DNA of 64,000 nt from Candidatus Uhrbacteria bacterium RIFCSPHIGHO2_02_FULL_46_47 (GTDB taxonomy: Bacteria; Patescibacteriota; Patescibacteriia; GWA2-47-26): NCBI GenBank assembly GCA_001790815.1, contig MGDU01000020.1:14277-78276 (forward strand). The letters are read 5' to 3'. Of the stretch, positions 3,348 through 27,978 are shown in pieces. A program made the translations under genes and the position numbers. Under the pieces are notes generated by a model. The model had not been told where the DNA came from. It did no database searches and saw nothing but the letters and a program-made list of their open reading frames with translations. The stretch's first letter is position 1. Each line of letters begins with the position of its first letter.

Positions 3348-4883
3348 CTAGTTTGCGGCAACTATTTCTTGAATTCCCTCTGGCGTTTGATGCCGCTTGC
3401 GCTTTTTTTCCGTGACATTAAACCCAAGATATTTTCCAAACAGGAGTCGTGTCTGCGCATCAAATGCGGGAAGTGACCCGAAAATAATCAAAGTGACTGG
3501 CAAAAGGAGCCACTGCCAGAAGATGTGCCAGGCGCGATAGAACGCGACCCCTGGCGGGCGCGGCGGAAGCAAGCGTGAGGTTAAAATTGCAGACACAATC
3601 ATACCGACCATTGCCACGCGCATCAGCCATTGAAGCATAAATGGCGTGCTTTGAAAAAATACTGTATCAACAAAATGTCCTCCTCCCAAAAGAAATGGGA
3701 GTTTTCCAAGAAGAAAAATTAAAAGCGGCGCGGTTGCCCATGAATACATGCCTTCGCCAAGATTCCAAAGAAATTTGATTTTTCGCCGCAGAGGAATTTG
3801 TTTGTGCTTGAGAAAATTCCATGCCATGTACGGAAAGTGTTCAATTCCCCAAGCCCAGCGCCTCTGCTGATAATAAAGCGCCTTGAGACTATTCCAGTAA
3901 TTGCCGCTTGTTACAGTATCCATGGATACTGGAAGATACAGCGGTATGACACGATAATCGCCATTATAATGCAAAAAACACTGTAGAAAGATGCGCGAAT
4001 CCTCCGTCACAATATCTTTTTGCCAAAATCCTACGTCCAAAAGTGCTTTAAATGGCATGCTATGAGATGAAAAGGTAAAGAGACGTTCAGTACGCGGGAG
4101 TTCAGTCATCAGCCAAAATGTTGTACCAAGCGCGGCAATACGAATAAGCGCGGGCGAATCCCAAATATTATTATTGTAGAGCGCAATTGGCTGGTATGAG
4201 GCGCGCAAAGGATTAGGAACAGTCAAATACTGATATGAAAGATAGGCAAAATATTGCGGATGTACGATTGTATCAATATCAAGCGATGAGACTATGACAT
4301 CTTCATAAGGAATCTTAAGCTCGTCTATAAACTCCCGCGCGCGATGCCCGGCCCAGTTCAAGTTTGAACCCTTGCCAGGAATTTCATCAGGCAAATTTGC
4401 AGGATGTATAGTTTTAATAAAATGCCCAAATACATTTTTGAATTTTTCCTCAATGAGCGCGGCATTTTGCAAAAAATTCTCGCGGTCGCGCTCCTCTCCC
4501 GCAAATACTATAATTAATTTCTCTTTTGGATATGTTGAGTCAGCTAAGCTTTGGAGGGTCGTGGTTAAAATCTCAATCCCTTCTTTATAAGTAGGCAAAA
4601 ATATCAGATGATATAATTTCTCCCATTGCGGCCTCTCCGCTTTAAGTTTAGAAGTCCAATCACTGCTTGTATCGCGGCGAAACCGCCGCCAAGATATGCT
4701 CAGATAAAACACAAAGTAGACTACGCGAAATAGCCAGTACAAATCAAAGAGCACAATAAAATAAAGCACCCAAAGCGGACGGATAAACGATAAAATGATC
4801 GCCACGGCAAGCGTTATCCAAATAAGGGAACCGGGAATCATTTCAAAAAAACGATACAATTTTGGTTTTGACTTCATCATCAT
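3348..4883 (-). CDS. Processive family-2 glycosyltransferase (cellulose/chitin synthase-like, membrane-embedded)
   Basis: QQRRWAWG (the QxxRW motif) is present with multiple TM helices at both ends. The GT2 catalytic-domain layout is recognisable. Confidence 0.8.
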   Translation of the reverse strand: MMMKSKPKLYRFFEMIPGSLIWITLAVAIILSFIRPLWVLYFIVLFDLYWLFRVVYFVFYLSISWRRFRRDTSSDWTSKLKAERPQWEKLYHLIFLPTYKEGIEILTTTLQSLADSTYPKEKLIIVFAGEERDRENFLQNAALIEEKFKNVFGHFIKTIHPANLPDEIPGKGSNLNWAGHRAREFIDELKIPYEDVIVSSLDIDTIVHPQYFAYLSYQYLTVPNPLRASYQPIALYNNNIWDSPALIRIAALGTTFWLMTELPRTERLFTFSSHSMPFKALLDVGFWQKDIVTEDSRIFLQCFLHYNGDYRVIPLYLPVSMDTVTSGNYWNSLKALYYQQRRWAWGIEHFPYMAWNFLKHKQIPLRRKIKFLWNLGEGMYSWATAPLLIFLLGKLPFLLGGGHFVDTVFFQSTPFMLQWLMRVAMVGMIVSAILTSRLLPPRPPGVAFYRAWHIFWQWLLLPVTLIIFGSLPAFDAQTRLLFGKYLGFNVTEKKRKRHQTPEGIQEIVAAN

Positions 4884-5203
4884 AAAGTAATATTCGGCTC
4901 GCCGCTGTATTTCGCAGACATTTGCCGCTTATCATTCACTTTTATTCCAAGCCCCCAGGCCAGCGCATTTACGGTGGCGATTACTTGCCGCACTCCACTG
5001 AAGGTTGCCTCACGCATATTGACACTTATGCTTTGTATCGCGCGCCTCTTTAGAGCAACCTTAGATATTGCCCACAAAAGCGGTATTTTGTCAAGCCGTA
5101 CTCGCTTTGTGCGCTTACCAAACCGCACCTCCGCTTCTTTTCCAATCACTTCCACGCACAATTCATTCTGCATTCTGCATTTTACATTCTGCATTCTTTT
5201 CAT
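4880..5203 (-). CDS. Hypothetical small basic protein
   Basis: ORF of 107 aa. Its N-terminus is encoded by a CATTCTG tandem repeat at 5151-5183, and the start codon is uncertain. Confidence 0.3.
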   Translation of the reverse strand: MKRMQNVKCRMQNELCVEVIGKEAEVRFGKRTKRVRLDKIPLLWAISKVALKRRAIQSISVNMREATFSGVRQVIATVNALAWGLGIKVNDKRQMSAKYSGEPNITL

Positions 5204-5823
5204 ATTCCCATTCGCGCCGGTTGAGGCAATGTGTCAATGAGTACAATCTTCTTATTTTCGAAAAAATTATAAAGAAATCTATCCATCATCTCTTTGCGCT
5301 CTGTAAATTCTTTTAAAGGCAAGATCGTGTAATTAATTGTTCGCCCGAATTCTTCTTCAAATTCGCGAAATACTTTTGCTGATTTTTCTTTGTTCACGCG
5401 CCCAACAATCATAAGGTCAGTAGGAAATCCTGGAAGATCAACGAAAAAACCGGTAAGCGCTAAATAACGAATTGATCCGATCCCTTTAAGCTGACGCGCA
5501 AGCTCTTCCTGAAGTAGAAGCTGGCCTTTATTCAAAAGAATTCGAAGTTCATTAAAAATGACGCAAGCGGGATTTGCTTCGTAGAATTTTCGACGCAGAC
5601 CGCTTGCGCGATGGGTCTCCGCTTGGTTTTCTTCATGTATCTGAATAAGCCCGATCTTACTGAGATTCGAAAGTTCGCGGCGAACCGAATGAATATGCGA
5701 TCGAGTTAATCGCGTAATTTCCCGAACATAAAATGTTTGATCCGGGTGCTCCAAAAAAAGCTTTAAAAGCCGTACGCGTATTCTTGAACCAAAAATTTGT
5801 TCAAGGGAAGCTTGTTTTTTCAT
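5200..5823 (-). CDS. Winged-helix (ArsR/MarR-like) transcriptional regulator with an uncharacterised C-terminal domain
   Basis: N-terminal ...RLLKLFLEHPDQTFYVREITRLTRSHIHSVRRELSNLSKIGLI... is a typical wHTH. The start overlaps the upstream ORF by 4 nt. Confidence 0.6.
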   Translation of the reverse strand: MKKQASLEQIFGSRIRVRLLKLFLEHPDQTFYVREITRLTRSHIHSVRRELSNLSKIGLIQIHEENQAETHRASGLRRKFYEANPACVIFNELRILLNKGQLLLQEELARQLKGIGSIRYLALTGFFVDLPGFPTDLMIVGRVNKEKSAKVFREFEEEFGRTINYTILPLKEFTERKEMMDRFLYNFFENKKIVLIDTLPQPARMGI

Positions 5824-5913
5824 ACTATGTCTTGGAGTGCTGGGAGTGCTTTACAGTTGATATGATTATAGTATATACTAGCATAATGAATAGCGTCAAA
5901 GGTAACCACGCCC

Positions 5914-7983
5914 ATGCATCAAAAGTTTATTGTGCGAATCGAAATTAATTTTTCCGGTAAAGCATCTCTTCCTTGGGTTGCCATGAGCCGTCGTGGGCGC
6001 CAATTGGTGGAATCCCAATGCTTTGCCTTGCTTGGTTATCCCGAGACAGAGCTCTCAAAGCTTCAGGGTGCTGATTTGGAAAGTGCGCGCGATACTCTTG
6101 AATCCGCACTGCGCTTACTAAGCGCATTTGAATACATTCCAAAGGATGACACTCAAACTGATAGTTTTTTTGAAAAAAAAATTGTGGCTTTTGAAGAGCG
6201 GATCGCGCAATCCAGCACATTGCTTCCACTCCATGCGGCAATCGGAGTGATCCTTGGAACCCGCGTACTTTTTGCAACATCAGGCGACATTCTTGTGCTG
6301 CAAGTCACCCCCTCAAGTATCGTAAACCTTGCAGATTCTGGAAAAGGTGTATCCCTGCACTTTGAAACGTTTCGATCAGGGTTGCTTACACCTCAATCCA
6401 TGCTTCTTTTTATTCCTAAAAATACGGGTACGCTTCTTAAATCTGACGAACTGAAAAGTCTACATACCGCGCGAAGTTCTGAACATAAATTGAAATATCT
6501 TGAGCATCTTTTGGAAAAACGGTCTGCGCTTTCTGGAGCGCTGTGCGCCGTACTTTTGGAAACCAAGTCAAAAGTGGTAAAAACTTTTGAAACGACCGCG
6601 GTTTCTATCGCAAACTTGCTAAATACCGAGGCAAAAACCGAGGAATTGCTCTCCCCTCCACTGCTTAAACCGCTTATTGAACGGGTAAAAATTCTGGTGA
6701 TAAAAAGCTATGAACGTATTGCGGCAATCGTTAAAATTTATACAACTAAAAGCATGCCGGTGCGCACTACAAGATCAAAGCAAGCGCCTCAGGTGGCATC
6801 AAAAACTGAAGTAAATCGCCCGCGAAGCGTAAACCCGTCTCAGGTTGCGGAAAATGCAGCGCGTACTCCTACCCCTATATTTCTTTCTTCCTACTTTATG
6901 CATCTATCGGCATGGAACAAAACCAATCTCAACTGGTTTAATAGAAAATTAGCTTGGGGAGAGAGGCGCGCCCGTATTTTATCGCATTTGAATAGCACTA
7001 CTATTATTTCTCGCTTTAACGCATTACCCCTTAGAAGCAAAATACTCTTTATATTCGTCGCTACCTTTCTTTTTATCTTTGTTGAAAGCGTTTTTCTTAC
7101 CATGCAAAATGCAAAGGTAGTAAAAGCCGATACCGCGCTGCGTGATGAAATTACTGGGATACGAACTTTGATAGACAGCGCCGCCTCCTCGCTGATTTAC
7201 AATGATGAAGAAAAAGCGCGTAAGGAAGCAGACGAAGCAAAACTGCGTATTGCCGGATTGCCACAATTTCAAAAAACAACCGCGCAGAGTCTGCGCTTGA
7301 GATCGCTCCGAGGACTTAGAACTTCAGTCAGTAGAAAAATGATCTCTGAACTTGAAACAGCACTTACACCTGTTGTTGAAAAACTCCGGCATGCGGTTGT
7401 GATTGAAAATCCCACCGTAATTGAAAATCCTCTGCCAAATACAATTCCTAATCTCACCGGAGAAATTCCTACCAAAGTGGTGTACCACAAACGCATGTAT
7501 TCGCTTGAGCCGAGCGCGAATCAAATTTTCAAACACGAACCGGTAAAGGACGGATTTTCCGCCCAAGGCGGATCCGCCTTGGGCGGAGACGCCGGCACGC
7601 CCTGGATTAAAGACGGCACTGATGTGCGCAATGCCATAATGCTCACTGTTGATGGATCGTTTTACGTCACTGACGGAAGTGGCACAGTGATTGAACTTTT
7701 AAAAGGCAAAAAAACTGATTTTGCGCTTAAGTCCATTGATCCGGCGCTTACGCAAATTAAAAAACTTTGGACTAATGAAGGATCTGATTATCTTTACATA
7801 CTTGACCAGACGGAAAAAAGACTTGCTGTATTTACAAAAAAAGACGGGCTTCTCAAAGCGCAGTACACAAGTCCCAAATTCACTGACCTCAAAGACTTCG
7901 CCGTGGACGAAGGCAAAAAACTCGCCTATCTTTTAGACGGTACTTCCGTCATTTCTATCACTCTTTCCCATTTTGGGAAATAA
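5914..7983 (+). CDS. Hypothetical protein with a central TM helix and a Gly-rich C-terminal domain
   Basis: Long ORF with coding-like composition and a TM segment ILFIFVATFLFIFVESVFL. No recognisable family, and the true start is unclear. Confidence 0.5.
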   Translation: MHQKFIVRIEINFSGKASLPWVAMSRRGRQLVESQCFALLGYPETELSKLQGADLESARDTLESALRLLSAFEYIPKDDTQTDSFFEKKIVAFEERIAQSSTLLPLHAAIGVILGTRVLFATSGDILVLQVTPSSIVNLADSGKGVSLHFETFRSGLLTPQSMLLFIPKNTGTLLKSDELKSLHTARSSEHKLKYLEHLLEKRSALSGALCAVLLETKSKVVKTFETTAVSIANLLNTEAKTEELLSPPLLKPLIERVKILVIKSYERIAAIVKIYTTKSMPVRTTRSKQAPQVASKTEVNRPRSVNPSQVAENAARTPTPIFLSSYFMHLSAWNKTNLNWFNRKLAWGERRARILSHLNSTTIISRFNALPLRSKILFIFVATFLFIFVESVFLTMQNAKVVKADTALRDEITGIRTLIDSAASSLIYNDEEKARKEADEAKLRIAGLPQFQKTTAQSLRLRSLRGLRTSVSRKMISELETALTPVVEKLRHAVVIENPTVIENPLPNTIPNLTGEIPTKVVYHKRMYSLEPSANQIFKHEPVKDGFSAQGGSALGGDAGTPWIKDGTDVRNAIMLTVDGSFYVTDGSGTVIELLKGKKTDFALKSIDPALTQIKKLWTNEGSDYLYILDQTEKRLAVFTKKDGLLKAQYTSPKFTDLKDFAVDEGKKLAYLLDGTSVISITLSHFGK

Positions 7984-7987
7984 CTTT

Positions 7988-9517
7988 CTATTCCCATTCC
8001 ATCGTGGCGGGAGGTTTATTCGTAATATCATAGACTACACGGTTTACCTCACGCACTTCATTGGTAATTCGTGTTGAAATTTTTTCCAGGATTTCAAAAG
8101 GTATTTTTGCAAAGTTTGCTGTCATTGCATCTTTTGACTCTAAAATACGCACGACAACAGGATACTTATAACTGCGCGCGTCGCCCTGAATCCCCACACT
8201 TCGAATAGGAAGTAATACTGCAAAACTCATCCATAATTTTTTCCATAATAGTGTCTTTTTCAATTCCTCCTCAATAATCGCACTCGCCTGACGTACAATT
8301 TGAACACGCGTCGGCACTACCTCTCCAATAATACGCACCGCAAGTCCAGGTCCTGGAAATACCTGACGCGTCAGCATTACTTTCGGAAGCTTCAATGCTC
8401 GCGCCAATGTCCTCACTTCATCTTTATAAAGCTCCCGAAGCGGCTCGTATACTTCTAGTTTCAAATTCTTTGGCAATCCGCCAACGTTATGATGAGATTT
8501 AATCGTTGCTGAATGCGCCGTAAGACCGCTTTCGATGCGGTCCGAATAAATGGTTCCTTGCACAAGTACCTGGGATTTTTCCTTCTTTGCGATGGCAGAA
8601 AAAATATCAACAAATAATTTACCGATGATCTTCCGCTTCTTCTCCGGATCTTCAACACCCTTGAGCGCTCTAAAAAACTGCTTCTTGGCATCAATGATTC
8701 TAAGCGCAAGCGGCATTGTTTGAAATACCTTCCGGACATAGGCAGTATCATCCACCCTCATCAATCCTGTATCAACATATACCGCGATCAATTTATTACT
8801 TATGGCTTTTGAAAGAAGCACTGCGGCCACTGAAGAATCAATGCCGCCGGAAAGTCCAATTAAGGCCTTACGATCACCAATTACCTCTTTTGCTTCCTGT
8901 ACAATATCATCTTTCATGCGCGAAGTTGTCCAAGACTTTTTTGCATGGCATATCTGAAATACAAAATTCTTAAAAATTTGCATGCCATATTGCGTATGGG
9001 TAACTTCCGGGTGAAATTGCACGCCAAAAATCTTGCGATCCGGATTTGCAAATGCGGCGATTGGCGAATGCGCGGTATGTGCAAGAGATACAAAACCTGC
9101 AGAAAGCCGCACAACTATATCTCGATGATTCATCCATACCTTTTGATGCGCTGGCAAACTATGTAAAAGGAGCGGATCAGATTTCTGTACGAAGAGATCC
9201 GTAATCCCGTACTCCCCTGCTTTGCCAGAGTTCACTTTACCTCCGAACATATGCGCAATGAGCTGATGCCCATAGCAAATACCAAGAATCGGAAGCGAAC
9301 AATCAAAAAATGCGCGACTAAGCTTCGGCGCATTTTTCTCATATACAGACCGGGCACCACCTGAGAGAATAACTCCTTTTATTGAATCATCATTTTGTAT
9401 CTTTTGGGCAGCCGCCTCTGGAGATATAATCTCTGTCCACACCTGCACATCACGAATCCTGCGTGCAATAAGATGACAATATTGTCCCCCAAAATCTACA
9501 ATGAGGATTTTATCCAT
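7988..9517 (-). CDS. guaA: GMP synthase (glutamine-hydrolysing)
   Basis: MDKILIVDFGGQYCHLIARRIR... is the class-I glutamine amidotransferase start. The ATP-PPase SGGIDSSV motif and the C-terminal dimerisation domain are present. Confidence 0.93.
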   Translation of the reverse strand: MDKILIVDFGGQYCHLIARRIRDVQVWTEIISPEAAAQKIQNDDSIKGVILSGGARSVYEKNAPKLSRAFFDCSLPILGICYGHQLIAHMFGGKVNSGKAGEYGITDLFVQKSDPLLLHSLPAHQKVWMNHRDIVVRLSAGFVSLAHTAHSPIAAFANPDRKIFGVQFHPEVTHTQYGMQIFKNFVFQICHAKKSWTTSRMKDDIVQEAKEVIGDRKALIGLSGGIDSSVAAVLLSKAISNKLIAVYVDTGLMRVDDTAYVRKVFQTMPLALRIIDAKKQFFRALKGVEDPEKKRKIIGKLFVDIFSAIAKKEKSQVLVQGTIYSDRIESGLTAHSATIKSHHNVGGLPKNLKLEVYEPLRELYKDEVRTLARALKLPKVMLTRQVFPGPGLAVRIIGEVVPTRVQIVRQASAIIEEELKKTLLWKKLWMSFAVLLPIRSVGIQGDARSYKYPVVVRILESKDAMTANFAKIPFEILEKISTRITNEVREVNRVVYDITNKPPATMEWE

Positions 9518-9663
9518 AAATTAAATGAGTCCACAATTGTATCATACAATTGGCATCCCCTCCATCCCATTTCTCATTTCTGTAAAATAAGAGACCCTCG
9601 ACCAGCTTGCGCCAATCGAGAGCCATTAGGAACTTTTTGCGTTTCAGGCAATAAAGCGCGGTT

Positions 9664-9852
9664 CTAGTCGCCACTTCCGCAGTCACCGCCACCGTCCGGC
9701 GAGAAATGGAACTCCATTTCGCCGGAGAGAAAGTCGCTCGCGACATGCCCGTCAAGCAAAGCGGTGAACATGGGGCCGCTACGACTCGGCATCGTCTCTG
9801 CCTCTGCCTTGCCTACCCCTTCTTTTACCATTTTTGGAGCGCCGTCAACCAA
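9664..9852 (-). pseudogene. Remnant copy of the rplL 3' end (L7/L12 C-terminal ~20 codons) fused to GC-rich sequence
   Basis: Translation begins [21 protein letters not shown], matching the C-terminus of rplL at 10661..11071. Nucleotides 9791-9850 are an imperfect copy of 10707-10767. Confidence 0.5.
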
Positions 9853-9857
9853 GTCCC

Positions 9858-10196
9858 TTAAGGGTATACACGCCGCGCATCTTTATAAATACGGCGCAAA
9901 TTCGGAGATTCACTTTTTTTAAGATCGGCAAATTCCTTGGCAGTCAGTCCGATAATATCCATTGGCACTTGCAACGCCGAACCGCGGCGCATGCTATTAA
10001 GAAGCTGAAGCCGTTCCATAAGCGGCATACGCGCGAAATCCGGAGAAAGCACAATAAGATCAATATCACTGTCGTAGCGCATCTGACCCCGCGCACTACT
10101 GCCAAACAATACTACCTCCTCTACTTGTACCGCAGAAGCAATACTCTTAGCGTAATCGCGAGCTATTTTTTTTGCATTAATGCGTTCTCTATCCAT
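9858..10196 (-). CDS. Minimal nucleotidyltransferase (MNT) antitoxin of a HEPN/MNT module
   Basis: GSSARGQMRYDSDIDLIV is the nucleotidyltransferase GS...DxD motif. It overlaps the HEPN gene by 34 nt, a typical TA operon arrangement. Confidence 0.8.
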   Translation of the reverse strand: MDRERINAKKIARDYAKSIASAVQVEEVVLFGSSARGQMRYDSDIDLIVLSPDFARMPLMERLQLLNSMRRGSALQVPMDIIGLTAKEFADLKKSESPNLRRIYKDARRVYP

Positions 10197-10573
10197 ATAA
10201 ACAGTTCCTTAGTTTTATTAAGAATATCCTCAGCATTCTTACGGTTATAGGTGAATGAAAATTTTGGCGCAAATGGCAAATCTGGGTACCGTGGGATCAG
10301 ATAATGTGGCTGTAATTCGTCAATAAACTGTACAAATTTTTCTGGAATTTCAAGTTTAGTCGCAGTACGCAGAGCAGTAAGATCATGAATCTTTTTGACT
10401 TCTAAATCCTGCTCCACCAGGTGTGCCTTAAGAATTTTTTCAATCGATTGATGGCAATGGAATACCACTACCTGATACGCGCTCCCCCGCTTTGCTCCAT
10501 ATTGCATCTGCACTTCAGCCGCATCCAAATCAGCTCGCGCAAATTCAACCCACTTTTTGGTAATATCCTTCAT
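10163..10573 (-). CDS. HEPN-domain toxin of a HEPN/MNT module
   Basis: All-alpha protein with the YLIPRYPD (Rx4-6H-type RYP) motif characteristic of HEPN partners of MNT. Confidence 0.75.
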   Translation of the reverse strand: MKDITKKWVEFARADLDAAEVQMQYGAKRGSAYQVVVFHCHQSIEKILKAHLVEQDLEVKKIHDLTALRTATKLEIPEKFVQFIDELQPHYLIPRYPDLPFAPKFSFTYNRKNAEDILNKTKELFIWIENALMQKK

Positions 10574-10660
10574 ATTCGCAGTCTATAAGTATACCACCAC
10601 AAATTTCTATGTCAAATTCAAAAACCCTCCAATCGGAGGGCTTTTTATGAGTTGTGCTGT

Positions 10661-11071
10661 TTACTTCAGGGTCGCCTTCGCTCCCGCCTCTTCCAATTTT
10701 TTCTTCATCGTCTCTGCTTCGGCTTTGCCAACCCCTTCTTTTACCATTTTTGGAGCGCCGTCAACCATGTCTTTGGCATCTTTCAAGCCAAGCTGGGTAA
10801 TCTCGCGTAGCACTTTAATCACGCCGATTTTATTTGAGCCAGATTCAGTAAGCTCCACATTAAACGTGGTTTGCTCTTCAACGGGCGCAGTGGCCGCGGA
10901 GGGAGCGCCAGCGACCGGAGCCCCGACGAATGTCTGGGCGGCTGAAACACCGAACTTGCCTTCCAATACTTTTACAAGCTCCGCAAGATCGGAAACTGTG
11001 AGTTTCTCAATCTGCTCTACAAGGCCCTTGAATTTCTCCGGGACTTCAACATTTTTTTGTTCATCTGCCAT
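10661..11071 (-). CDS. rplL: 50S ribosomal protein L7/L12
   Basis: [10 protein letters not shown]... with the [16 protein letters not shown] dimerisation region and a conserved C-terminal domain ending ...[10 protein letters not shown]. Confidence 0.95.
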
Positions 11072-11169
11072 ATTGATTATGATACGAATCTACAAATGAT
11101 TGGCGAATCTTCGAATATGCGAATTCGTATATTGGTAGATTCGTCATTAATTCGCTGATTCGTATCGTA

Positions 11170-11697
11170 TTACGATTTAGACTCTTTAATTGCATTTAAT
11201 ACCTGCACCAATCCGCGCAAATTTCCAGCCAGTACATTTACAAAACCAGAGATTGGTGCTTTTACCGTGCCAACAAGTTTTGCCAAAAGCTCGACCCGAC
11301 TTGGCAAACTTGCCAGCGCTTTAATTTGGTTTGTATCTACAAACTTTCCTTCAAAAAGGCCGCCCAAAATCTTGAACGCCTCAAATTCTTTAGCTGTGGT
11401 GGCTGCAAATTTCGCCGTAGTCACCTCATCGCTATATCCGGTTACAAGTCCAATATTGCCTTCAAGCTTTTTAGGATCAACAGTGCTTTCCAAGCCGGCA
11501 TTTTTCAACGCGAGTTTCAGAAGTGACTTTTTGATCACTTCATAATCCACCGCTTCAGCCCAAGATTTTTCCCGAATCTTTTGCGCATCCTTAACTTTGA
11601 GTCCCTTGTAATCAACAAGAACCGCTCCTTTCATTTTTTTGAACTTATCAGTCAAGTCCGCAACACTTTGTTCTTTTTGTGTACGTGTCTTTGGCAT
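11170..11697 (-). CDS. rplJ: 50S ribosomal protein L10
   Basis: MPKTRTQKEQSVADLTDKFKKMKGAVLVDYKGLKV... is a typical L10. It lies immediately upstream of rplL. Confidence 0.93.
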   Translation of the reverse strand: MPKTRTQKEQSVADLTDKFKKMKGAVLVDYKGLKVKDAQKIREKSWAEAVDYEVIKKSLLKLALKNAGLESTVDPKKLEGNIGLVTGYSDEVTTAKFAATTAKEFEAFKILGGLFEGKFVDTNQIKALASLPSRVELLAKLVGTVKAPISGFVNVLAGNLRGLVQVLNAIKESKS

Positions 11698-11875
11698 ACC
11701 CGCTCTAAATTTTTCCGCATTATGTGCGGATTATACGATGAATAATTATAGTCAACGGTTCTGTAATTCTATTGTCCCCAACCTATTTACTCCACACTCC
11801 GCTTTGCGGAGTGAAGCGGAAAAATTTAGGCGGGCATAAAATAAATCTGTGGTTATGCCACAGACGCTTTAGGTT

Positions 11876-11946
11876 CCCCTCCCCTTAAGGTAAGGCCCGC
11901 TTCGCCCGCAAAGCGAGGCGAGGGAGAAGGAGGGGTTATGAACCCT
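11876..11946. repeat. Family-C GC-rich palindromic element (CTCCCCTTAAGGTAAGG...GGAGGGGTTATG), intergenic copy
   Basis: Nearly identical to 26144-26215. Related copies occur at 18905-18950, 46190-46245 and 63940-63990. Confidence 0.8.
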
Positions 11947-12194
11947 TGCCTCGGCAGGTCTTAGTCTCTCGAGCTTGTCGAGAGGCGCCTACTGTCTGTG
12001 GCGATTTAATTGTATTTATACACTACAATACTCCTTTATTTGTGTCAAGAGGCCGTGAAAATCTAAACACCTCCCTTGCGGGAGGCGTCCATTCAGGTCC
12101 GATGACCTGGATTCCAGATACCCCTCATCACTATTACTGTATCACAGACCACATTATATGTCAAGTAAATATGTGGACAACTCAAAACCCGAGC

Positions 12195-12275
12195 ATGACA
12201 GGTAAGGGAATCGAACCCTTCTGGATACCTTGATGAGGGGTATCTGGTCCCAGACCACCTGCCATTGCGCGGGTT
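12195..12275 (-). ncRNA. tRNA-like structure (good acceptor stem and T-arm, aberrant D and anticodon arms); possible tRNA pseudogene or att-site remnant
   Basis: The minus strand reads GGCAGGU...AAGGGUUCGAUUCCCUU ACCUGUC A, giving a 7-bp acceptor and a canonical T-loop. The anticodon arm has a 6-bp stem and a 9-nt loop. It overlaps a 17-bp inverted repeat (12113-12129 / 12229-12245). Confidence 0.3.
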
Positions 12276-12291
12276 TAACATTGTAACACAA

Positions 12292-12561
12292 TTATTTGAT
12301 TTTGAAATCTCTTAAAAGTTTGTCTGATTCTTCCCACTCCACATCCACTTTTTCAACCTTTGCCCATTTTGGCCCTTGTTTGCACCAATTTAAAAATTCC
12401 TGCAGTTGCGTTTCTTCTCCTTGCGCTACAATTTCCACTCCACCATTCGCATTTCTTGCCCAGCCAGTCAGTCCCAACTCCTTTGCGCGCTTTTGCGCTG
12501 AAGCCCTAAAAAACACCCCCACCACATCTCCTTTTATTTTTATATGCAGTTGTTTTTGCAT
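12292..12561 (-). CDS. acyP: Acylphosphatase
   Basis: 89 aa. VxGxVQGVxFR-like KGDVVGVFFRASAQ... and the GWARNANGGVEIVAQG motif are present. Confidence 0.85.
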   Translation of the reverse strand: MQKQLHIKIKGDVVGVFFRASAQKRAKELGLTGWARNANGGVEIVAQGEETQLQEFLNWCKQGPKWAKVEKVDVEWEESDKLLRDFKIK

Positions 12562-12585
12562 ACTTTATAATATATCAAATTGCGC

Positions 12586-12640
12586 AAAAAATTAAAGACC
12601 GTCCGGATGGTCGTGGGCTTTTGGCCTACACCCGGACGGT
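12586..12640 (-). terminator. Rho-independent terminator (stem ACCGTCCGG/CCGGACGGT followed by a T-run on the minus strand)
   Basis: Perfect 9-bp GC-rich stem followed, on the minus strand, by TTTAATTTTTT. Confidence 0.6.
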
Positions 12641-12805
12641 GAACTCCTCACTAACGATCTGTGCCACAGATGGGTTGAGCTACGGGGCTGTCCCGTGCCA
12701 TTGCCGGATCTGTGTCAAGACCCATCTTCTGAGCTTGCGCTCTTTACATGCGATTTTCACGCATGCGGCCTGAGAGGTAGGCCTGGTGCCGGCGTCGTCG
12801 TCGGG

Positions 12806-12943
12806 CTACTTGCCGCCGTCGAGGTAGTCGAAAAACTCGGTGGCGAGCGCCTTCGGCGGACCCGTGGCCCCCATGATGAACGCGGTCATGTTGTCCTTTC
12901 TGCCCGTGTGGGCTGCTTCGAGGCGACCACCGTGGCCACCCAT
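12806..12943 (-). CDS. Small GC-rich ORF (45 aa, MGGHGGRLEAAHTGRKDNMTAFIMGATGPPKALATEFFDYLDGGK) with its own promoter and terminator
   Basis: Promoter on the minus strand: TTGACA (12982-12977), 17-nt spacer, TAGAGT (12959-12954), then GAAGGTG 5 nt before the ATG. Rho-independent terminator hairpin at 12640-12599 plus a T-run. It is below the 60-aa cutoff of the supplied ORF track. Confidence 0.45.
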   Translation of the reverse strand: MGGHGGRLEAAHTGRKDNMTAFIMGATGPPKALATEFFDYLDGGK

Positions 12944-13229
12944 TTGCACCTTCACTCTACTCCTTTTTCACCTCTTTGTCAAGCCCAAAAAAAGCCGCCA
13001 GCTGAAGACCGCCGCACCAGAACAAGTTCGGTGCAGGACAGGCCGGCGACTACTTCTTACCTCTCTAGGCTGGCGCGCGGTGGCGGCTTGCAGCAAAAAT
13101 GTTGCGCAGGCCGAACAGGCACGGTGCCGAACGAAGTGAGGCGAGTGAGGCCGAGCACAAAGAGCGGGGTGCACGCTGGGCACCCCGACTCTGGTTTTTG
13201 CGCAAGTTGCCGACGCGCGACAGCCGCCC

Positions 13230-13814
13230 CTATCCCCCCAAACTAAACCGTACAAATCTGCGGACTTGGATATTTTCGCCAAGTTTGGAAATTTTACTTT
13301 TGACTACTTCTTCAATAGTGAGGTCTTCATCTTTGATAAATGACTGGCGCATGAGGCAAACATCCGAATACCATTTGTCCAGTTTGCCTTGCACAATTTT
13401 CTCCACAATATTTGCTGGCTTACCTGTCGTTTCTTCACCGTAGATTGATTTTTCTTTTTCAACCACTTCTTGCGGCACATCTTCCGGCTTTACATACAAA
13501 GGATTGGTGGCCGCAATTTGAAGCGCCAGATCATGGGCCAACTCTTCAAATTCCGGATTGCGCGCCACAAAATCAGTTTCACAAAGAAGCTCAACAAGTA
13601 CGCCAACTTTTCCGCCGCCGTGCACATAAGCGTGCACAACCCCTTCGTTGGTTGCGCGCTCGGCTTTTTTGGCGGCCTTAAGCACACCGCTTTTGCGCAA
13701 ATTCGTAGTGGCTTTTTCAATATCGCCTTGAGTTTCCTCCAGCGCTTTTTTCGCGTCAAGCACACCAGCGCCGGTTTGCTCGCGAAGTTGCATGACAAGT
13801 TTTGGATCGATCAT
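13230..13814 (-). CDS. tsf: Elongation factor Ts
   Basis: MIDPKLVMQLREQTGAGVLDAKKALEE... is the UBA-like N-terminus. It lies downstream of rpsB, as is conserved. Confidence 0.92.
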   Translation of the reverse strand: MIDPKLVMQLREQTGAGVLDAKKALEETQGDIEKATTNLRKSGVLKAAKKAERATNEGVVHAYVHGGGKVGVLVELLCETDFVARNPEFEELAHDLALQIAATNPLYVKPEDVPQEVVEKEKSIYGEETTGKPANIVEKIVQGKLDKWYSDVCLMRQSFIKDEDLTIEEVVKSKISKLGENIQVRRFVRFSLGG

Positions 13815-13856
13815 AATTGTTTGAGTAAATTAAGTAAATCAAGCAAGGCAAGTAAA

Positions 13857-14606
13857 TTAAGCAACCGATACCACTTGATTTACCTGATTTACTTGCGCAC
13901 TTGATTCACTCGTCTTCCCCTCTTCCTTCCCCTCCTGATACGCCTGCGCAATACATTTTACCACAAGTTCAATTGATTTTACAGCATCGTCATTGCCCGG
14001 AATTGGATATTGTACGCGCTCCGGGTTTGCATTGGTATCGCAAAGCGCGATTATCGGAATTTTTTTTTGATTGGCTTCGGCAAGCGCGGTTTCCTCATGC
14101 TTGATATCCACGATAAATAACGCATCCGGCAGTTTGGTCAAGGTGGAAATACCGTGCACAAGCTGGCTCATCCGTTCAATATCTTTTGAAAAATCAAGTT
14201 GTTCTTTTTTGGTATATTTTCCAAGCTCGCCGCGCTCCTGCTTGCCCTTAAGATCAAGATATTTTCTGATGAGCTTGTAAAGTTCGGCCCAATTAGTAAT
14301 TGTTCCGCCCAGCCAGCGATTTTCAACATAGGGCGCTCCGACTTCAGTTGCGTATTTTTTAATAAGCGGCGCGGCCTGCTTTTTGGTGCCCACAAACAAG
14401 AGCACCTTCCCCTCGCGACCCAGCGCCCTGACAAACTCGCAGGCGCGCGCAAGCTCCTCGCGCGTTTTTTCCAAATTAATAAGATGCACCCCGCCGCGCG
14501 CGCCAAAAATAAAAGGCGCCATTTTAGGGTGCCAACGTGATGTCTTATGGCCAAAGTGAACTCCGGCCTTAAGCAAATCCAATAATTCTGGGGTAGTGTT
14601 TGACAT
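13857..14606 (-). CDS. rpsB: 30S ribosomal protein S2
   Basis: ...LLKAGVHFGHKTSRWHPKMAPFIFGARGGVHLINLEKT... is the S2 signature. Confidence 0.95.
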   Translation of the reverse strand: MSNTTPELLDLLKAGVHFGHKTSRWHPKMAPFIFGARGGVHLINLEKTREELARACEFVRALGREGKVLLFVGTKKQAAPLIKKYATEVGAPYVENRWLGGTITNWAELYKLIRKYLDLKGKQERGELGKYTKKEQLDFSKDIERMSQLVHGISTLTKLPDALFIVDIKHEETALAEANQKKIPIIALCDTNANPERVQYPIPGNDDAVKSIELVVKCIAQAYQEGKEEGKTSESSAQVNQVNQVVSVA

Positions 14607-14788
14607 AGTTTGGTCCTTAATTCTTCCGCATGGCCCATCTTTGATTTCCGCTAAAGCGGAAAGCAGGACACGAAAGCCAGACGTGTATTTATTAATTGTT
14701 CCTTAGTCTACCAAACCACCCCAGGCTTGTCAAGCTTTTCAGTTCACAGGGCAGGGGCACGGGCTGCATCTACAAATCCTGGCTCGGT

Positions 14789-14826
14789 GTGTAAATTTTG
14801 AGTCTAAATTTGACTAAAACTTACAC
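14789..14826. repeat. Partial (terminal 37 nt) copy of the 147-bp foldback repeat unit
   Basis: Identical to 15976-16012 (TGTAAATTTTGAGTCTAAATTTGACTAAAACTTACAC). Confidence 0.85.
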
Positions 14827-14902
14827 TGGGAAGTTCTTTGCCAAAATGAAAAAGACCGGCGTCCCGTAGAGAGCCGGCGAGGAAGGAGCGTGGTTGCTGT
14901 GG

Positions 14903-15406
14903 TCAGCGTTGCTGGCGGCCTGCCCGTCGAAGCATGGCGAGAACGTCACGCCGTGCGGTGGCGCCAAGATAATGCTCAGCGTAGAGGTGTTCAATCGCCC
15001 TCTCTGCCTCCTGCATCGTGAGGAGGCTCACTTCAAAGGCGGTGATCAAGACCTTGCCGGTCCGAATCCATGGAAGCCCGAGCTGCTTCGCTGCCGCGAG
15101 TGCCTTGGCATCGTCGATGATCAGAACCGCATCCTCTTCGCGGCCGGCAAGCACAAGGCAAGCTGCTTCGCCCATGTCCAGATCGTAGGTCTGCTCGATC
15201 CCATTGCGCGCCCCAGAGTCTACGGTCATCACCTGGACACAGGTCAGCGAGGCGATCTCAAAGCCGGGACGGGTTTCTCCAGCCCGCGCCACTTCGTTAC
15301 GCACATCTTCCGGAACGATGATAGTTTCAAACAGAACCGGAAGGAGGTCGAGAAGGCCAACCTTGGAAAGCGCGATGATGGGACCGGAATCGACGATGGC
15401 TCTCAT
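14903..15406 (-). CDS. PIN-domain protein (COG2405/DUF3368-type), putative toxin
   Basis: The N-terminal IVDSGPIIALSKVGLLDLL pattern is typical of COG2405 PIN proteins. It overlaps the upstream UPF0175 gene by 4 nt. The locus is GC-rich. Confidence 0.65.
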   Translation of the reverse strand: MRAIVDSGPIIALSKVGLLDLLPVLFETIIVPEDVRNEVARAGETRPGFEIASLTCVQVMTVDSGARNGIEQTYDLDMGEAACLVLAGREEDAVLIIDDAKALAAAKQLGLPWIRTGKVLITAFEVSLLTMQEAERAIEHLYAEHYLGATARRDVLAMLRRAGRQQR

Positions 15407-15777
15407 GCAACTCTGGATCTGCGCTTGGCATGCGCCTTCATTGCACGCACTATACGCCGATCAGACACCGCTGCCGCCTCCGAATCATCCGCGTAGTACA
15501 AGCCCTCGGCTTTGAGGAGTTCCAGAAACTCCGCAAGTCGCATGCCCAGCGTCTTGGCCGCGACCCCAGCGGAGCAGGAACCTCTCTTGAAGAGGGCGAG
15601 TACAAGCTGACGACGACCCTCGCGAGCTGCCTCCGCCTTGAGCTTCGCGCTCACATGCGTGGGCAACTCGAAATCCACATGTACGCGTGTGGCCACAGTA
15701 GAACCTCCTGTTGTGTGTTGCATAGAGTGAACGGCAGCGTGGGCTGCCAGAAATTGAGAACCGACCTTTATCTTCAC
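15403..15777 (-). CDS. UPF0175 (COG2886) family antitoxin
   Basis: LVLALFKRGSCSAGVAAKTLGMRLAEFLELLKAEGL matches the UPF0175 HTH-like core. It is paired with a COG2405 PIN protein. Confidence 0.6.
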   Translation of the reverse strand: MKIKVGSQFLAAHAAVHSMQHTTGGSTVATRVHVDFELPTHVSAKLKAEAAREGRRQLVLALFKRGSCSAGVAAKTLGMRLAEFLELLKAEGLYYADDSEAAAVSDRRIVRAMKAHAKRRSRVA

Positions 15778-15865
15778 AATACACCTTGGTGCGGAACTCC
15801 GTCAATGCCTCGCGTCTCCGTCGTCTCCCTCTTCGTCTCCACCTGAGCATCGTGTTCCCGCCGAT

Positions 15866-16012
15866 TGTAAGTTTTAGTCAAAAATGTATGCATTTTTTAC
15901 AAAAAAATAGAATCGCTCATTGGCGAATATTCGCTAGAATAAGCAATCTTTGACAAGTTTGATATTCTATTTTTTTGTAAATTTTGAGTCTAAATTTGAC
16001 TAAAACTTACAC
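15866..16012. repeat. 147-bp quasi-palindromic foldback repeat unit (copy 1)
   Basis: Near-perfect reverse complement of 16639-16787. Termini are GTAAGTTTTAGTC...GACTAAAACTTAC, with the internal palindrome GCGAATATTCGC. Confidence 0.9.
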
Positions 16013-16022
16013 CTTTCGCTAT

Positions 16023-16613
16023 TCAGCATCGCAGCGCTTCCGTGTAGCGCGCATTCAAGAGGAGCGCGTCAATTTGCGAATCAATCAGTGGAATGAAACG
16101 GCGGTCAATGCGTACGAATTTACGGCAAGGAACCTCGAGAAAGTAAAGCTCGCCCGGCATCTCATCAGGAACCCTGAATCCGGAAAGTCCGCGTTCTGAT
16201 GTGAAGGGATTTCGGTAATCACGAAAGAGAACGTATTGGTTCTGCTCAATCCAGGCGTCCAGACTGCCGAACGGTTCATATGTAGCGGGCTCATGAAAGA
16301 AGAGAAGACTCAAATAGGTGTCGCTGTCTTTCATGGGTGATGGCGCGAGTACAATGAGAGAAATGCGTGTCTGATCTTGTGGGCGCGCGATTAGCCAGCC
16401 GGATGGTACGTCAAAGGCAATTGGACCTAGTTCGATCGACATTGCATCGATGGGGGTGACAGTCGGAGTCGGTCTATGACGGTGGCTTCCGAGTGCCCAC
16501 GCAGTGGGAAGCCCAATGAGGCTGACAAGCGCCAAAAAGGCTGCAACCACCCAGGGTCGCCCGCAAGTGTGTAAGCTGCTACTTGGCACCATATATTTCC
16601 AATTTACTCCCAT
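16023..16613 (-). CDS. Hypothetical secreted protein (signal peptide), GC-rich cassette
   Basis: N-terminal ...VVAAFLALVSLIGLPTAWA. Flanked on both sides by the 147-bp repeat units. Confidence 0.55.
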   Translation of the reverse strand: MGVNWKYMVPSSSLHTCGRPWVVAAFLALVSLIGLPTAWALGSHRHRPTPTVTPIDAMSIELGPIAFDVPSGWLIARPQDQTRISLIVLAPSPMKDSDTYLSLLFFHEPATYEPFGSLDAWIEQNQYVLFRDYRNPFTSERGLSGFRVPDEMPGELYFLEVPCRKFVRIDRRFIPLIDSQIDALLLNARYTEALRC

Positions 16614-16638
16614 GTCGCACGTTGAGTCAAGAGTCTGG

Positions 16639-16787
16639 TCTGTAAGTTTTAGTCAAATTTAGACTCAAAATTTACAAAAAAATAGAATATCAAACTTGTC
16701 AAAGATTGCTTATTCTAGCGAATATTCGCCAATGAGCGATTCTATTTTTTTGTAAAAAATGCATACATTTTCGACTCAAACTTACAG
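16639..16787. repeat. 147-bp foldback repeat unit (copy 2, inverted relative to copy 1)
   Basis: Reverse complement of 15866-16012 with only a few mismatches. Confidence 0.9.
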
Positions 16788-16880
16788 TATAGGGTAAAAG
16801 ATAAAATAAATAAAACTGAATAATTGTTTGGCTGTGGGCTTGCCAAATTTCAGCCCTTTTGCTATACTATTCCCACGAAT

Positions 16881-17165
16881 ATGAAGACCGACCTTCACCC
16901 ACAATATTACCCTCAAGCCAAGATTACATGCGTGTGCGGGGCAATCTATACCACAGGATCAACAGTTCCGGAGATCCGTGTGGAAATTTGCAGTGCCTGC
17001 CATCCATTTTTTACCGGAAAACAAAAGCTTGTTGACACTGCCCGTCGTGTTGAAAAATTCACGCAGCGCGTCGCAAAAAAAGCTACGACCGGAGCACGCA
17101 CAAGCAAAACCGTAAAACGCGCGACCAAGCAAGCCGCGAGAAAATTGAAATTGGAAGAAAAATAA
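16881..17165 (+). CDS. rpmE: 50S ribosomal protein L31
   Basis: [49 protein letters not shown]... contains the CxxC...CxxC zinc ribbon of L31. The track ORF 16824.. is trimmed to the internal Met. Confidence 0.88.
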
Positions 17166-23063: not shown

Positions 23064-23163
23064 AGCTGTGATGCAAATCTACAAATCTTATGCACATTTA
23101 CGAATTGCGAATAAATTCATTTGTATTTGTAGATTGGCATGAAATTCGTATATTGGCATCATA

Positions 23164-26097: not shown

Positions 26098-26246
26098 CGT
26101 AACTCCCCCAACCCCCTCTTACCCTAAGAGGGGGTTTTTGTTTGTGCTCCACCCCTTAGGATAAGGCCCGCTTCGCCCGCAAAGCGAGGCGAGGGAGGTA
26201 GGAGGGGTTACGAAATTTGATGTAGCCGCAGGTCTTTAGCCTGCGC
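26098..26246. repeat. Composite of repeat families C and D immediately after the gyrB stop (GTAACTCCCCC...CCCTAAGAGGGGG, ...CCTTAGGATAAGG...GGAGGGGTTACG, then GTAGCCGCAGGTCTTTAGCCTGCGC)
   Basis: Subunits recur at 18841-18950, 11876-11946, 52259-52300, 41722-41746 and 61060-61111. Confidence 0.8.
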
Positions 26247-26327
26247 AAAATTACAACACACAATGCGCGGGGGCTTGCCTGCCCCGCACCGAGCTTTGCT
26301 CTGGTGCGTTGGGTCCCCCGTTAAAAA

Positions 26328-26365
26328 TTATGTCAACTGTGAGCGATCGTTTATATTTGACATAA
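26328..26365. promoter_or_regulatory. Conserved 38-nt palindromic motif TTATGTCAA-N20-TTGACATAA (copy 1 of 4)
   Basis: Identical core at 53858-53895 and 63147-63184, and a diverged copy at 41245-41288. All copies lie next to GC-rich islands. Confidence 0.6.
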
Positions 26366-26366
26366 T

Positions 26367-27884: not shown

Positions 27885-27978
27885 GCCCGCTGATCGGAAG
27901 ACACTGATAACGCTGATAGTAAAGCGTAGTCAGTGTAATCAAGATCAGCGATATCAGCGACTAAATAATCAGCGGACT

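Follow-up and report, generated by a model that had tools for sequence, protein, structure and literature searches.

A HEPN/MNT gene pair and an orphaned rplL segment in a variable slot of an Uhrbacteria genome

In a Candidatus Uhrbacteria genome from groundwater, a HEPN/MNT gene pair is found directly 3' of rplL, the gene of ribosomal protein L7/L12, and a second, slightly divergent segment of rplL is found on the far side of the pair. This raises the question of how an essential ribosomal gene comes to be represented twice around a piece of accessory DNA. The initial annotation read the locus as site-specific integration that had rebuilt the 3' end of rplL. We analysed the locus within the window, the whole 64-kb stretch of DNA under study, which as a whole has 46% GC. 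All of the 24 contigs that we read, taken from assemblies at ENA, JGI and NCBI, share an identical arrangement. These contigs were assembled independently, which settles the concern that the duplication could be an assembly artefact: it is genuine. Seven aligned retrieved loci match the window at 100% over 4661-17071, save for one mismatch and a scaffold N-gap in L003. The species is clonal across all samples, and a cassette-free strain was sought among its retrieved contigs with no success, since every contig carries the cassette. The genes concerned are all encoded on the minus strand, so that the intact rplL is upstream and the fragment downstream of the cassette, the reverse of the orientation first assumed, in which an rplL remnant was placed upstream. 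The features are collected in Table 1.

Table 1. Features of the rplL locus, in window coordinates
Feature	Position	Strand	Evidence or remark
Convergent conserved hypothetical gene, 689 aa	5914..7983	+	usual rplL neighbour in related genomes
guaA (GMP synthase)	7988..9517	-	Pfam; extra at this site compared with related genomes
Palindrome CCACAATTGTATCATACAATTGG	9533..9555		self-match; just upstream of guaA
Strong intrinsic-terminator-like hairpin	9583..9624	-	14-bp stem, then TCTTATTTTA; also in the MFE fold
End of the chimeric ORF: stop codon preceded by a G/D-rich tail (GGGDCGSGD)	9664..9696	-	resembles the P0269/P0275 C-terminus
Internal fragment of an orphan family (P0269/P0272 residues ~87-121)	9697..9789	-	in frame with R2, 62% GC
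R2, orphaned piece from inside rplL (codons 101-122)	9790..9855	-	61/66 identical to R1
MNT (minimal nucleotidyltransferase) gene, 112 aa	9858..10196	-	PF01909, E = 2.6e-11
HEPN-domain gene, 136 aa	10163..10573	-	PF05168, E = 2.8e-22
Candidate cassette promoter	10588..10615	-	-35 TTGACA (10615-10610), 16-nt spacer, extended -10 TGgTATACT (10593-10588)
Native, bidirectional-looking rplL terminator hairpin	10620..10646		AAAAA-CCCTCC-AATC-GGAGGG-CTTTTT on the + strand
rplL (L7/L12), intact, 136 aa	10661..11071	-	PF16320 and PF00542; C-terminal domain model covered in full
R1, repeat copy within intact rplL, codons 101-122	10706..10771	-	repeat search and codon mapping
rplJ (ribosomal protein L10)	11170..11697	-	PF00466, E = 2e-18; conserved, precedes rplL in every related locus

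The repeat and the intact rplL gene

The direct repeat consists of two copies of 66 nt, R1 and R2, which are spaced by 916 bp and agree at 92.4% of their positions (E = 5e-21, blastn-short within the window). The longest exact block common to both is 37 nt. The existence of a direct repeat had been recognized correctly, while its limits are replaced by those of Table 1 and its mismatches are reduced from about eight to five. The repeat begins with D[M/L] and encodes residues 101-122 of the 136 residues of L7/L12. It had been taken for the last ~20 residues of the protein, which is not the case, as 14 further codons follow in the intact gene. These last 14 codons and the terminator hairpin look like the gene's own, and they are collinear with the closest relatives, L097 and L100, both of which have homologous hairpins after rplL. 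Nucleotide homology to L097 spans the rplL hairpin and stops near 10620. Identity to L097 is even along the gene, with 81% in the 5' part, 88% in R1 and 84% in the tail. We could not detect a discontinuity indicating a mosaic boundary in rplJ-rplL, at a resolution limited by the ~79% nucleotide identity of the nearest relative.

The distal copy R2 starts 2 nt past the MNT stop codon. After R2 the reading frame runs on as PSRSGPMF..., with no rplL tail, and it leads into a gene fragment of the P0269 family and not into the original 3' end of the gene. An internal repeat, a distal copy that lacks the displaced tail and a native-looking end of rplL speak against an integration that rebuilt the 3' end of the gene.

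R2 is nearest to R1, and any other rplL examined matches it at 56 of 66 positions at most. Four of the five differences between R1 and R2 are synonymous, and the fifth exchanges M for L at a position where Leu is common in homologues. The codon states peculiar to R2 are TTG, GTA, AAG, GCA and GAG. Under neutral decay of R2, at least four synonymous changes out of five are expected with P = 0.008-0.015, an argument that rests on five sites only. With the nearest relatives as outgroups, three of these five changes fall on the R2 branch, the polarisation of third codon positions being weak. With four synonymous differences and one common variant, R2 is probably derived from a once-functional, slightly diverged rplL allele.

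The HEPN/MNT module

Both genes of the pair, proposed from the open reading frames alone, are borne out by their Pfam matches (Table 1), and they overlap by 34 nt. A motif scan finds neither RX4-6H (R.{4,6}H) nor RX4HXY in HEPN, and the conserved RY(PD) tyrosine region is retained. The PDB relatives of HEPN are 1WOL, 1UFB and 1O3U, with TT1696 (1UFB) and TM0613 among the proteins represented. MNT carries the motif GSX10DXD at residues 32-46 (GSSARGQMRYDSDID) and scores 36.7 bits against the NCBIfam MntA equivalog, which is under the cutoff of 60. The classification of such pairs goes back to the prediction by Makarova et al. 2009 (PMC2701414), with Class II HEPN/MNT defined by Yao et al. 2020 (PMC7641770). 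As in Class II, adjacent and overlapping PF05168 and PF01909 genes are found here, with GSX10DXD in MNT and with RX4HXY missing in HEPN. Judged by these sequence features, the pair is a Class II HEPN/MNT module, a class for which, according to PMC7641770, no biochemical study has validated a toxin-antitoxin role. Type VII HepT/MntA (Class I) was considered and rejected: MNT would agree with it (PF01909, GSX10DXD), but HEPN belongs to PF05168, not to PF01934 or PF08780, and has no RX4HXY. In contrast to characterised Class I HepT/MntA pairs, where MNT is upstream, the gene order here is HEPN then MNT.

The cassette is very compact and extends from just past the terminator T-run to 2 nt past the MNT stop codon. 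Its candidate promoter matches the consensus at 11 of 12 positions and has an upstream TG. In L092 and L093, where the context differs, the same promoter elements lie in front of HEPN homologues. The stretch 10588-10615 would be expected to function as promoter of the module. Homologues of the cassette (60-79% aa identity) sit in unrelated contexts, and no rplL fragment adjoins them there. The pair is missing from every related locus examined, which agrees with its early description as accessory DNA 3' of rplL.

The chimeric reading frame and the slot after rplL

The GC-rich stretch next to R2 had been noted as fused to an rplL remnant. The rise in GC is real, with 62% in 9664-9789 compared to 46% in the window, and the stretch is a fragment of a protein-coding gene. 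An exhaustive phmmer search of 1.84 billion proteins relates it to the P0269/P0272 family with E = 4.6e-6 and 1.4e-4 at 66-67% identity, backed by alignment and reciprocal tblastn. A tblastn extension of the P0269 homology into R2 amounts to ~2 identities over 13 residues and was rejected as alignment overhang. For the G/D-rich tail, homology to P0269/P0275 is suggested by a similarity of low complexity. The resulting chimeric ORF spans 9852-9664 and ends in a stop codon, followed by a strong terminator. The P0269/P0272 family has no match in Pfam, PHROGs, PADLOC, PDB sequences, INPHARED phages, PLSDB plasmids or IMG/VR. A P0269-like gene beside rplL occurs in no relative, and the window and all fetched loci contain no further copy of the GC-rich stretch. 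A structured RNA or a riboswitch leader of guaA was also considered, and Rfam returned noise only, both for the window at gathering thresholds and for 9400-10000 at permissive E-values. The upstream regions of guaA relatives have nothing in common with the GC-rich stretch. The RNA reading was dropped because the protein homology was found.

The expectation was that a genome lacking the cassette would have guaA directly after rplL. Instead, relatives have the convergent 689-aa gene at this place. Most of the 80 related genomes have its homologue directly after rplL. So does L098, with 52% identity along the full length. In other relatives, rplL is followed by lineage-specific genes, among them Dus, EamA and unknowns. 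With either the 689-aa gene or other lineage-specific genes after rplL, the slot is variable. guaA downstream of rplL is absent in ~90 related Patescibacteria loci, its nearest homologues, found in other contexts, reach only ~70% identity, and a metagenome scan with guaA gave only relatives of at most 45% identity. As rplL is followed by the 689-aa gene in relatives, guaA itself is inserted extra DNA. The palindrome in front of it is a possible candidate promoter or operator. The best relatives, with L12 identities of 91%, 86% and 84%, have neither the HEPN/MNT module nor guaA nor R2. Among the relatives examined, none showed an intermediate arrangement.

Origin of the second rplL segment

We conclude that the locus is probably no attachment site but a scar that recombination left in a variable slot. 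The slot, bounded by the native rplL terminator (~10620) on one side and by the 689-aa gene, which stops at 7983, on the other, would have been filled with accessory DNA in this lineage of Uhrbacteria, in the order Class II HEPN/MNT module with promoter (10615-9858), dead chimeric ORF (9852-9664), terminator (9624-9583) and guaA. R2 would be an orphaned stretch from within rplL that has lost both ends and continues, in the same frame, into an inner part of an unrelated orphan gene. The early idea that the second rplL segment is the product of recombination with a divergent copy remains the best explanation, while the idea of an integrase footprint finds no support. The specific history by which the scar arose is tentative, possible rather than probable. 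DNA of a close relative may have entered at rplL by recombination, paired on one side with a homologous anchor and joined illegitimately on the other. This would have left a redundant partial rplL copy downstream, which later deletions would have cut to 66 nt and fused to the remains of a neighbouring gene. Today, the module would have its own promoter, just past the rplL terminator, for transcription. The 3' untranslated region of its transcript would consist of R2 and the gene fragment, and the predicted hairpin at 9624-9593 would stop this transcript before guaA. Such a history requires at least two or three events. It is weakened, too, by the clonality of the species, by a nearest relative with 91% L12 identity and no intermediate genome among the relatives examined, by the even identity along rplJ-rplL and by the finding of no P0269-like gene beside rplL in any relative.

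The proposed history resembles C-terminal displacement by homology-facilitated illegitimate recombination, which is described for Rhs, CDI and T6SS effector loci together with orphaned 3' fragments (PMC5361080). These systems have a conserved 5' homologous anchor, illegitimately joined new DNA, 3' orphans of the old allele downstream and no integrase. At the Uhrbacteria locus, R2 as probable orphan of an alternative rplL allele is found downstream of the cassette, and no recombinase was found among ORFs of at least 100 aa in the window. By analogy, displacement of this kind may have acted at Uhrbacteria rplL. In contrast to Rhs, CDI and T6SS, where the variable tip is swapped and new toxin tips arrive with immunity genes, the gene here encodes an essential ribosomal protein, its tip is unchanged, and the 66-nt stub would later have been fused to a gene fragment.

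Origin of R2 in situ is unlikely by comparison. Tandem duplication or a template switch in replication would have copied at least 66 nt of the resident rplL as filler, and the copy would have diverged later. The short distance of 916 bp between the copies and the fact that no rplL is closer to R2 than the resident one are in line with this, and the patchwork of 66 nt of rplL, ~95 nt of another gene and a short tail fits template switching. A dead copy decaying neutrally is nevertheless not expected to show four synonymous differences out of five next to a common variant (P ~0.01), nor is it favoured by the three changes that the nearest outgroups place on the R2 branch. The synonymy argument is weak, as it has few sites and changes in the selected R1 are synonymous as well.

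It is highly unlikely that the module is a small integrative cassette at an att site within rplL, with the 66-nt copies serving as attL and attR for a recombinase that is encoded elsewhere and works in trans. Accessory DNA is indeed bracketed by direct repeats of the 3' region of a gene, the 37-nt exact block would suffice for a core site, and the tight fit of the cassette between terminator T-run and MNT stop codon is as expected. A precedent is known from streptococci: the tyrosine integrases of the ICESa2603 family insert their elements into the 3' end of rplL, using a 15-bp att site (PMC4735348). An essential ribosomal gene as target, initially set against the usual tRNA and tmRNA genes, is therefore not without example. 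Both the ICESa2603 family and the Uhrbacteria locus have accessory DNA directly 3' of rplL, bracketed by repeated rplL sequence. ICESa2603 elements, however, are tens of kb in size, encode a tyrosine integrase and have identical 15-bp att sites at the very 3' end of rplL, whereas no integrase was found in the 64-kb window around the Uhrbacteria locus, and its repeat is 66 nt long, imperfect and internal, with a distal copy that lacks the gene end. The displaced rplL tail and terminator expected after R2 are missing and an unrelated gene fragment takes their place, while tail and terminator after R1 look native. A search for the recombinase that the initial annotation assumed gave no match to integrase, recombinase or transposase families (Phage_integrase, Resolvase, rve, DDE) in ORFs of at least 100 aa in the 64-kb window. 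Cassette homologues elsewhere are without rplL-like flanks. The site is occupied in all 24 contigs, with neither an empty nor an excised form, and among ~90 related loci there is no second rplL segment, nor is there the same att site with different cargo. A function of the fragment, as a translated chimera of 55-62 aa, a 3'-UTR RNA structure or an antisense transcript pairing with rplL mRNA, is scarcely credible: the ORF is open with a 55-aa gene called there by JGI (P0266), the fold of the 343-nt region is better than that of shuffled sequence (z = -2.9) and a promoter-like site at 9473-9502 (+) points into the fragment, but on inspection neither candidate start codon has a usable ribosome-binding site, the L12 piece has no complete fold element, the chimera finds only itself in 1.84 billion proteins, no Rfam score is meaningful, and the fold signal comes mostly from the terminator and palindrome hairpins.

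The main value of the scar reading is a correction of annotation. A repeat with the look of an attachment site turns into a stub from inside a gene, fused to a gene scrap, the GC-rich stretch becomes what is left of a pseudogene from an orphan protein family, and guaA, the presumed native neighbour, becomes a newcomer. Current understanding is not challenged by the locus. The module offers an example of Class II HEPN/MNT with well-delimited predicted promoter and terminator, which suits a test of toxicity and neutralisation. Beyond that, we consider it quite unlikely that the rplL 3' region with its terminator is a recurrent integrase-free anchor for promoter-bearing modules in Patescibacteria, or that the 66 nt are a true att site for a recombinase in trans. 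If a recurrent anchor did exist, C-terminal displacement would act on an essential ribosomal gene, and orphaned stubs of ribosomal genes would be a readable record of successive captures. On the preferred reading of a scar in a variable slot, the locus illustrates how the streamlined genomes of the candidate phyla radiation may gain accessory modules just past the terminator of a conserved operon, where the scars persist.

Structure and reality of the repeat

Downstream of the intact rplL gene for ribosomal protein L7/L12, a HEPN/MNT gene pair is followed by a second, orphan copy of an rplL segment (R2), which is identical at 61 of 66 positions to the corresponding segment within the intact gene (R1). 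This match is far beyond chance for the window (E = 5e-21). The direct repeat of about 60 bp described in the initial annotation is present, with different limits and quality, and it does not comprise the last residues of L7/L12 as had been stated. It encodes residues 101-122 (D(M/L) followed by 20 residues); beyond it, the intact gene runs for 14 more codons and the fragment reads on as PSRSGPMF.... The genes of this finding are all encoded on the minus strand.

The repeat is not an assembly artefact, a possibility raised at its first description, since the same gene order is found in 24 of 24 contigs encoding this L12 protein (ENA, JGI and NCBI, different samples) and the seven loci retrieved and aligned are 100% identical to the window across 12.4 kb, a single mismatch in L003, a locus of the same species, being the exception. 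The lack of HEPN and MNT genes in L003 is apparent only, with a run of N inside HEPN.

Features of the rplL locus in transcription order, followed by other elements of the window
Feature	Position	Strand	Remark
rplJ	11697-11170	-	first in transcription order
rplL, intact	11071-10661	-	136 aa
R1	10706-10771		66 nt, inside rplL
Terminator hairpin after rplL	10646-10620
Promoter	-35 at 10615-10610, extended -10 at 10593-10588	-	sequence pattern
HEPN gene	10573-10163	-	PF05168
MNT gene	10196-9858	-	PF01909; 34-nt overlap with HEPN
R2, second rplL segment	9855-9790	-	66 nt, 2 nt after MNT
Stop codon closing GC-rich stretch after R2	9666-9664	-
Strong terminator-like hairpin	9624-9593, T-run to ~9583	-
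Palindrome upstream of guaA	9555-9533
guaA	9517-7988	-
Convergent 689-aa gene	5914-7983	+	stop codon four bases past guaA
rplJ-rplL	10661-11697	-
nusG-rplK-rplA	27339-29182	+
L10 leader-like match	11880-12019	-	upstream of rplJ
GC-rich hairpin, two copies	11873-11942, 26144-26214		91% identity
GC-rich region	12600-13250		~650 bp, 60% GC
146-nt inverted repeats	15866-16011, 16641-16786		99% complementary; element 15866-16786
196-aa ORF	16023-16613	-	between the inverted repeats
37-nt copy of the 146-nt repeat's end	14790-14826
AT-rich repeat family	11078-11169, 23044-23163, 26961-27068, 28393-28519, 33328-33439, 36142-36188
GC-rich hairpin repeats	18862-18948, 19610, 20538-20624, 26105, 35769, 38275, 40980, 46158-46238, 52265-52349, 56553, 57487, 58530, 63941
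57-nt element	26317-26373, 53847-53903, 63136-63192		88-91% identical
tRNA-Ile(GAT) call	54806-54891		86 nt, ARAGORN

The position after rplL in relatives

We inspected 5 kb around rplL in 80 related Patescibacteria genomes recovered by L12. In most of them, a homologue of the 689-aa gene follows rplL directly, in convergent orientation and 60-150 bp away, and within these 5 kb HEPN, MNT, guaA or a second rplL segment is found in none of the 80. The picture is unchanged for closer relatives from the protein database with L12 identities of 91%, 86%, 84% and 84%: in L098, the convergent 689-aa homologue comes directly after rplL (52% identity, full length), and in L097, L099 and L100 other genes lie past the terminator. 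In several more distant lineages, Dus, EamA transporter or unknown genes occupy the gap. As relatives carry differing genes after rplL, this position is a variable slot. The empty site that had been predicted, with guaA adjoining rplL, does not appear in relatives, which show the convergent 689-aa gene or other genes instead. Compared with the common arrangement, the extra DNA comprises all of 7984-10619, guaA included. The nearest homologues of guaA are only ~70% identical and belong to other Patescibacteria and other operons (e.g. guaA-guaB-phosphoribosyltransferase).

Between the window and L097, the closest relative, nucleotide homology continues past the rplL stop codon, takes in the terminator hairpin and stops near 10620; a hairpin homologous to the rplL terminator also occurs in L100. 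Compared with L097, the 5' part of rplL is 81% identical, R1 88% and the tail 84%, and the remaining relatives give similarly even values along rplL. Because homology is collinear through the terminator and identity is even, the evidence indicates that the intact gene, its tail and terminator behave as one native unit, with R2 as the extra piece, at a resolution limited by relatives no closer than ~79% nucleotide identity. An insertion is present as initially annotated, but its interpretation as site-specific integration that reconstitutes the rplL 3' end is not supported.

Two further observations concern the surroundings of rplL. In L100 (86% L12 identity), a GC-rich insertion of ~190 nt at 1562-1770 separates the stop codon of rplL from the conserved terminator hairpin; its sequence is not related to that of the GC-rich stretch in the window. 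The usual nusG-rplK-rplA-rplJ-rplL cluster is split in the window, with its plus-strand part ~16 kb from the minus-strand rplJ-rplL, and rpoB does not follow rplL.

The HEPN/MNT module, the GC-rich stretch and other elements

HEPN and MNT match their Pfam families with E = 2.8e-22 and E = 2.6e-11, respectively. MNT contains the GSX10DXD motif at residues 32-46 and scores under the cutoff of the NCBIfam MntA equivalog model. A motif scan of HEPN, whose relatives with solved structure are 1WOL, TT1696 (1UFB) and TM0613, gave no RX4-6H / RX4HXY motif. By these features the pair belongs to Class II as defined by Yao et al. 2020, a class that according to this paper lacks biochemical proof as a toxin-antitoxin system (PMC7641770); the class is known but uncharacterised, and the module is one member of it. 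It is a self-contained unit of ~760 bp with its own predicted promoter, because homologues with 60-79% amino-acid identity sit in unrelated neighbourhoods, share nucleotide similarity only over the promoter -10 region, HEPN and MNT (~10597-9898), repeat the TTGAC(A/T)...TATACT promoter upstream and have no rplL-like sequence beside them.

The GC-rich stretch after R2 has no meaningful Rfam match and no further copy in the window or the loci retrieved, and codon-position GC indicates that the frame running on from R2 could be coding. When the 41 residues that follow R2 were compared exhaustively with 1.84 billion representative proteins, the non-repetitive matches besides the ORF itself were two proteins from a single orphan family: P0269 (287 aa; E = 4.6e-6, 66% identity over residues 87-121) and P0272 (165 aa; E = 1.4e-4, 67% identity over 30 residues). 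The alignment has the invariant core R..P.F.A.LDGHVAS.F.....EF.F.P, and the match is upheld by reciprocal tblastn. A hairpin (14-bp stem, T-run) comes 40 nt after the stop codon, the usual layout for the 3' end of a gene. From this protein homology, the stop codon and the 3'-end layout, the stretch is what remains of a protein-coding gene, fused in frame to R2 as a chimeric ORF of 62 codons. The last nine residues of the stretch, GGGDCGSGD, are similar to the G/D-rich C-terminus of P0269 and P0275, a low-complexity likeness that would fit an internal deletion and is only suggestive. The family has no match in Pfam, PHROGs, PADLOC, PDB sequences, phage, plasmid or IMG/VR data and is otherwise uncharacterised. 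P0269 and P0272 both start with a HExxH-like motif (HENQH, HEIKH) at the predicted N-terminus, a pattern suggesting that the start codon was mis-called or that a small metallopeptidase-like domain is present.

The window holds further repeats. The ORF between the 146-nt inverted repeats has no Pfam, NCBIfam or PADLOC match; the whole looks like an IS/MITE-like or invertible element, and the 37-nt copy of the repeat's end is found next to a UPF0175/DUF3368 gene pair. A further repeat family, AT-rich, intergenic and in many cases palindromic (ATTCGTAGATTGGCAT...-like), has copies in the rplJ-rplL and rplK-rplA spacers, and short GC-rich hairpin repeats of several families (CCCCTC...GGGAGAGG type) are scattered between genes in the fashion of REP elements. 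The 57-nt element with the palindrome TTATGTCAACTGTGAGCGATCGTTTATATTTGACATAA could be a shared operator or promoter. The L10 leader-like match (RF00557) scores 25 bits, below the gathering score of 44; one GC-rich hairpin is part of it and recurs downstream of gyrB. Between the acylphosphatase gene and tsf, the 60% GC region has no evident gene, only spurious-looking ORFs and no Rfam match at permissive or gathering threshold. The tRNA-Ile(GAT) call is either false or marks an unusual tRNA, possibly one that has an intron or a long arm; the Rfam tRNA model reaches its gathering score nowhere in the window.

Origin of the second rplL segment

R2 is nearest to the resident R1, and the 61 of 66 matches against at most 56 of 66 for the other rplL segments examined point to this lineage or a very close relative as its source. 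Four of the five differences between R1 and R2 are synonymous third-position changes; when the nearest relatives serve as outgroups, three of these fall on the R2 lineage. The remaining difference, ATG to TTG, replaces M by L, and Leu is found there in many functional homologues. Under simple decay of R2 as dead DNA, at least four synonymous changes in five have a probability of 0.008-0.015. As the pattern is unlikely under decay, it favours a functional, slightly diverged rplL allele as origin over a recent in-situ copy, within the limits of few sites and of selection on R1, changes in which would also be synonymous. The patchwork structure would suit in-situ duplication or template switching, which accounts less well for the substitutions and which we regard as unlikely.

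R2 is truncated on both sides, one end meeting the MNT stop codon and the other the interior of the unrelated gene; that gene, too, seems to have lost an internal part. The most likely explanation is that these ends are scars of deletion or illegitimate joining and not recombination cores. In the history we favour, DNA of a close relative may have recombined at rplL, anchored there by homology and joined illegitimately at its distal end, leaving a redundant partial rplL copy downstream; subsequent deletions would have trimmed this copy and fused the rest to what was left of a neighbouring gene. Orphaned 3' fragments at T6SS effector and Rhs loci have been explained along the same lines (PMC5361080).

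We consider site-specific integration, with the recombinase supplied in trans, improbable: it fails on the position of the repeat, the content of the distal copy, recombinase presence, empty sites and recurrence of the site. Among the ORFs of at least ~100 aa in the 64-kb window, Pfam scans identified just housekeeping genes plus a few unknowns, and no family of integrases, resolvases or transposases. Elements of the ICESa2603 family rely on a tyrosine integrase and on a 15-bp att site that lies at the extreme 3' end of rplL (PMC4735348); the locus described here has only the location in common with them.

Judged from sequence patterns, the module's own promoter just past the rplL terminator probably drives transcription of HEPN/MNT. 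The 3' untranslated region of the module would consist of R2 and the gene fragment, and the hairpin following them would insulate guaA. A functional chimeric ORF or antisense RNA is very hard to credit: an open frame and a promoter-like match speak for it, nothing more, and the 62 codons have no plausible ribosome-binding site.

Integration beside rplL is not unusual in itself. We lean towards regarding the feature as a recombination scar, ordinary yet instructive, that occupies a variable slot in a streamlined genome.
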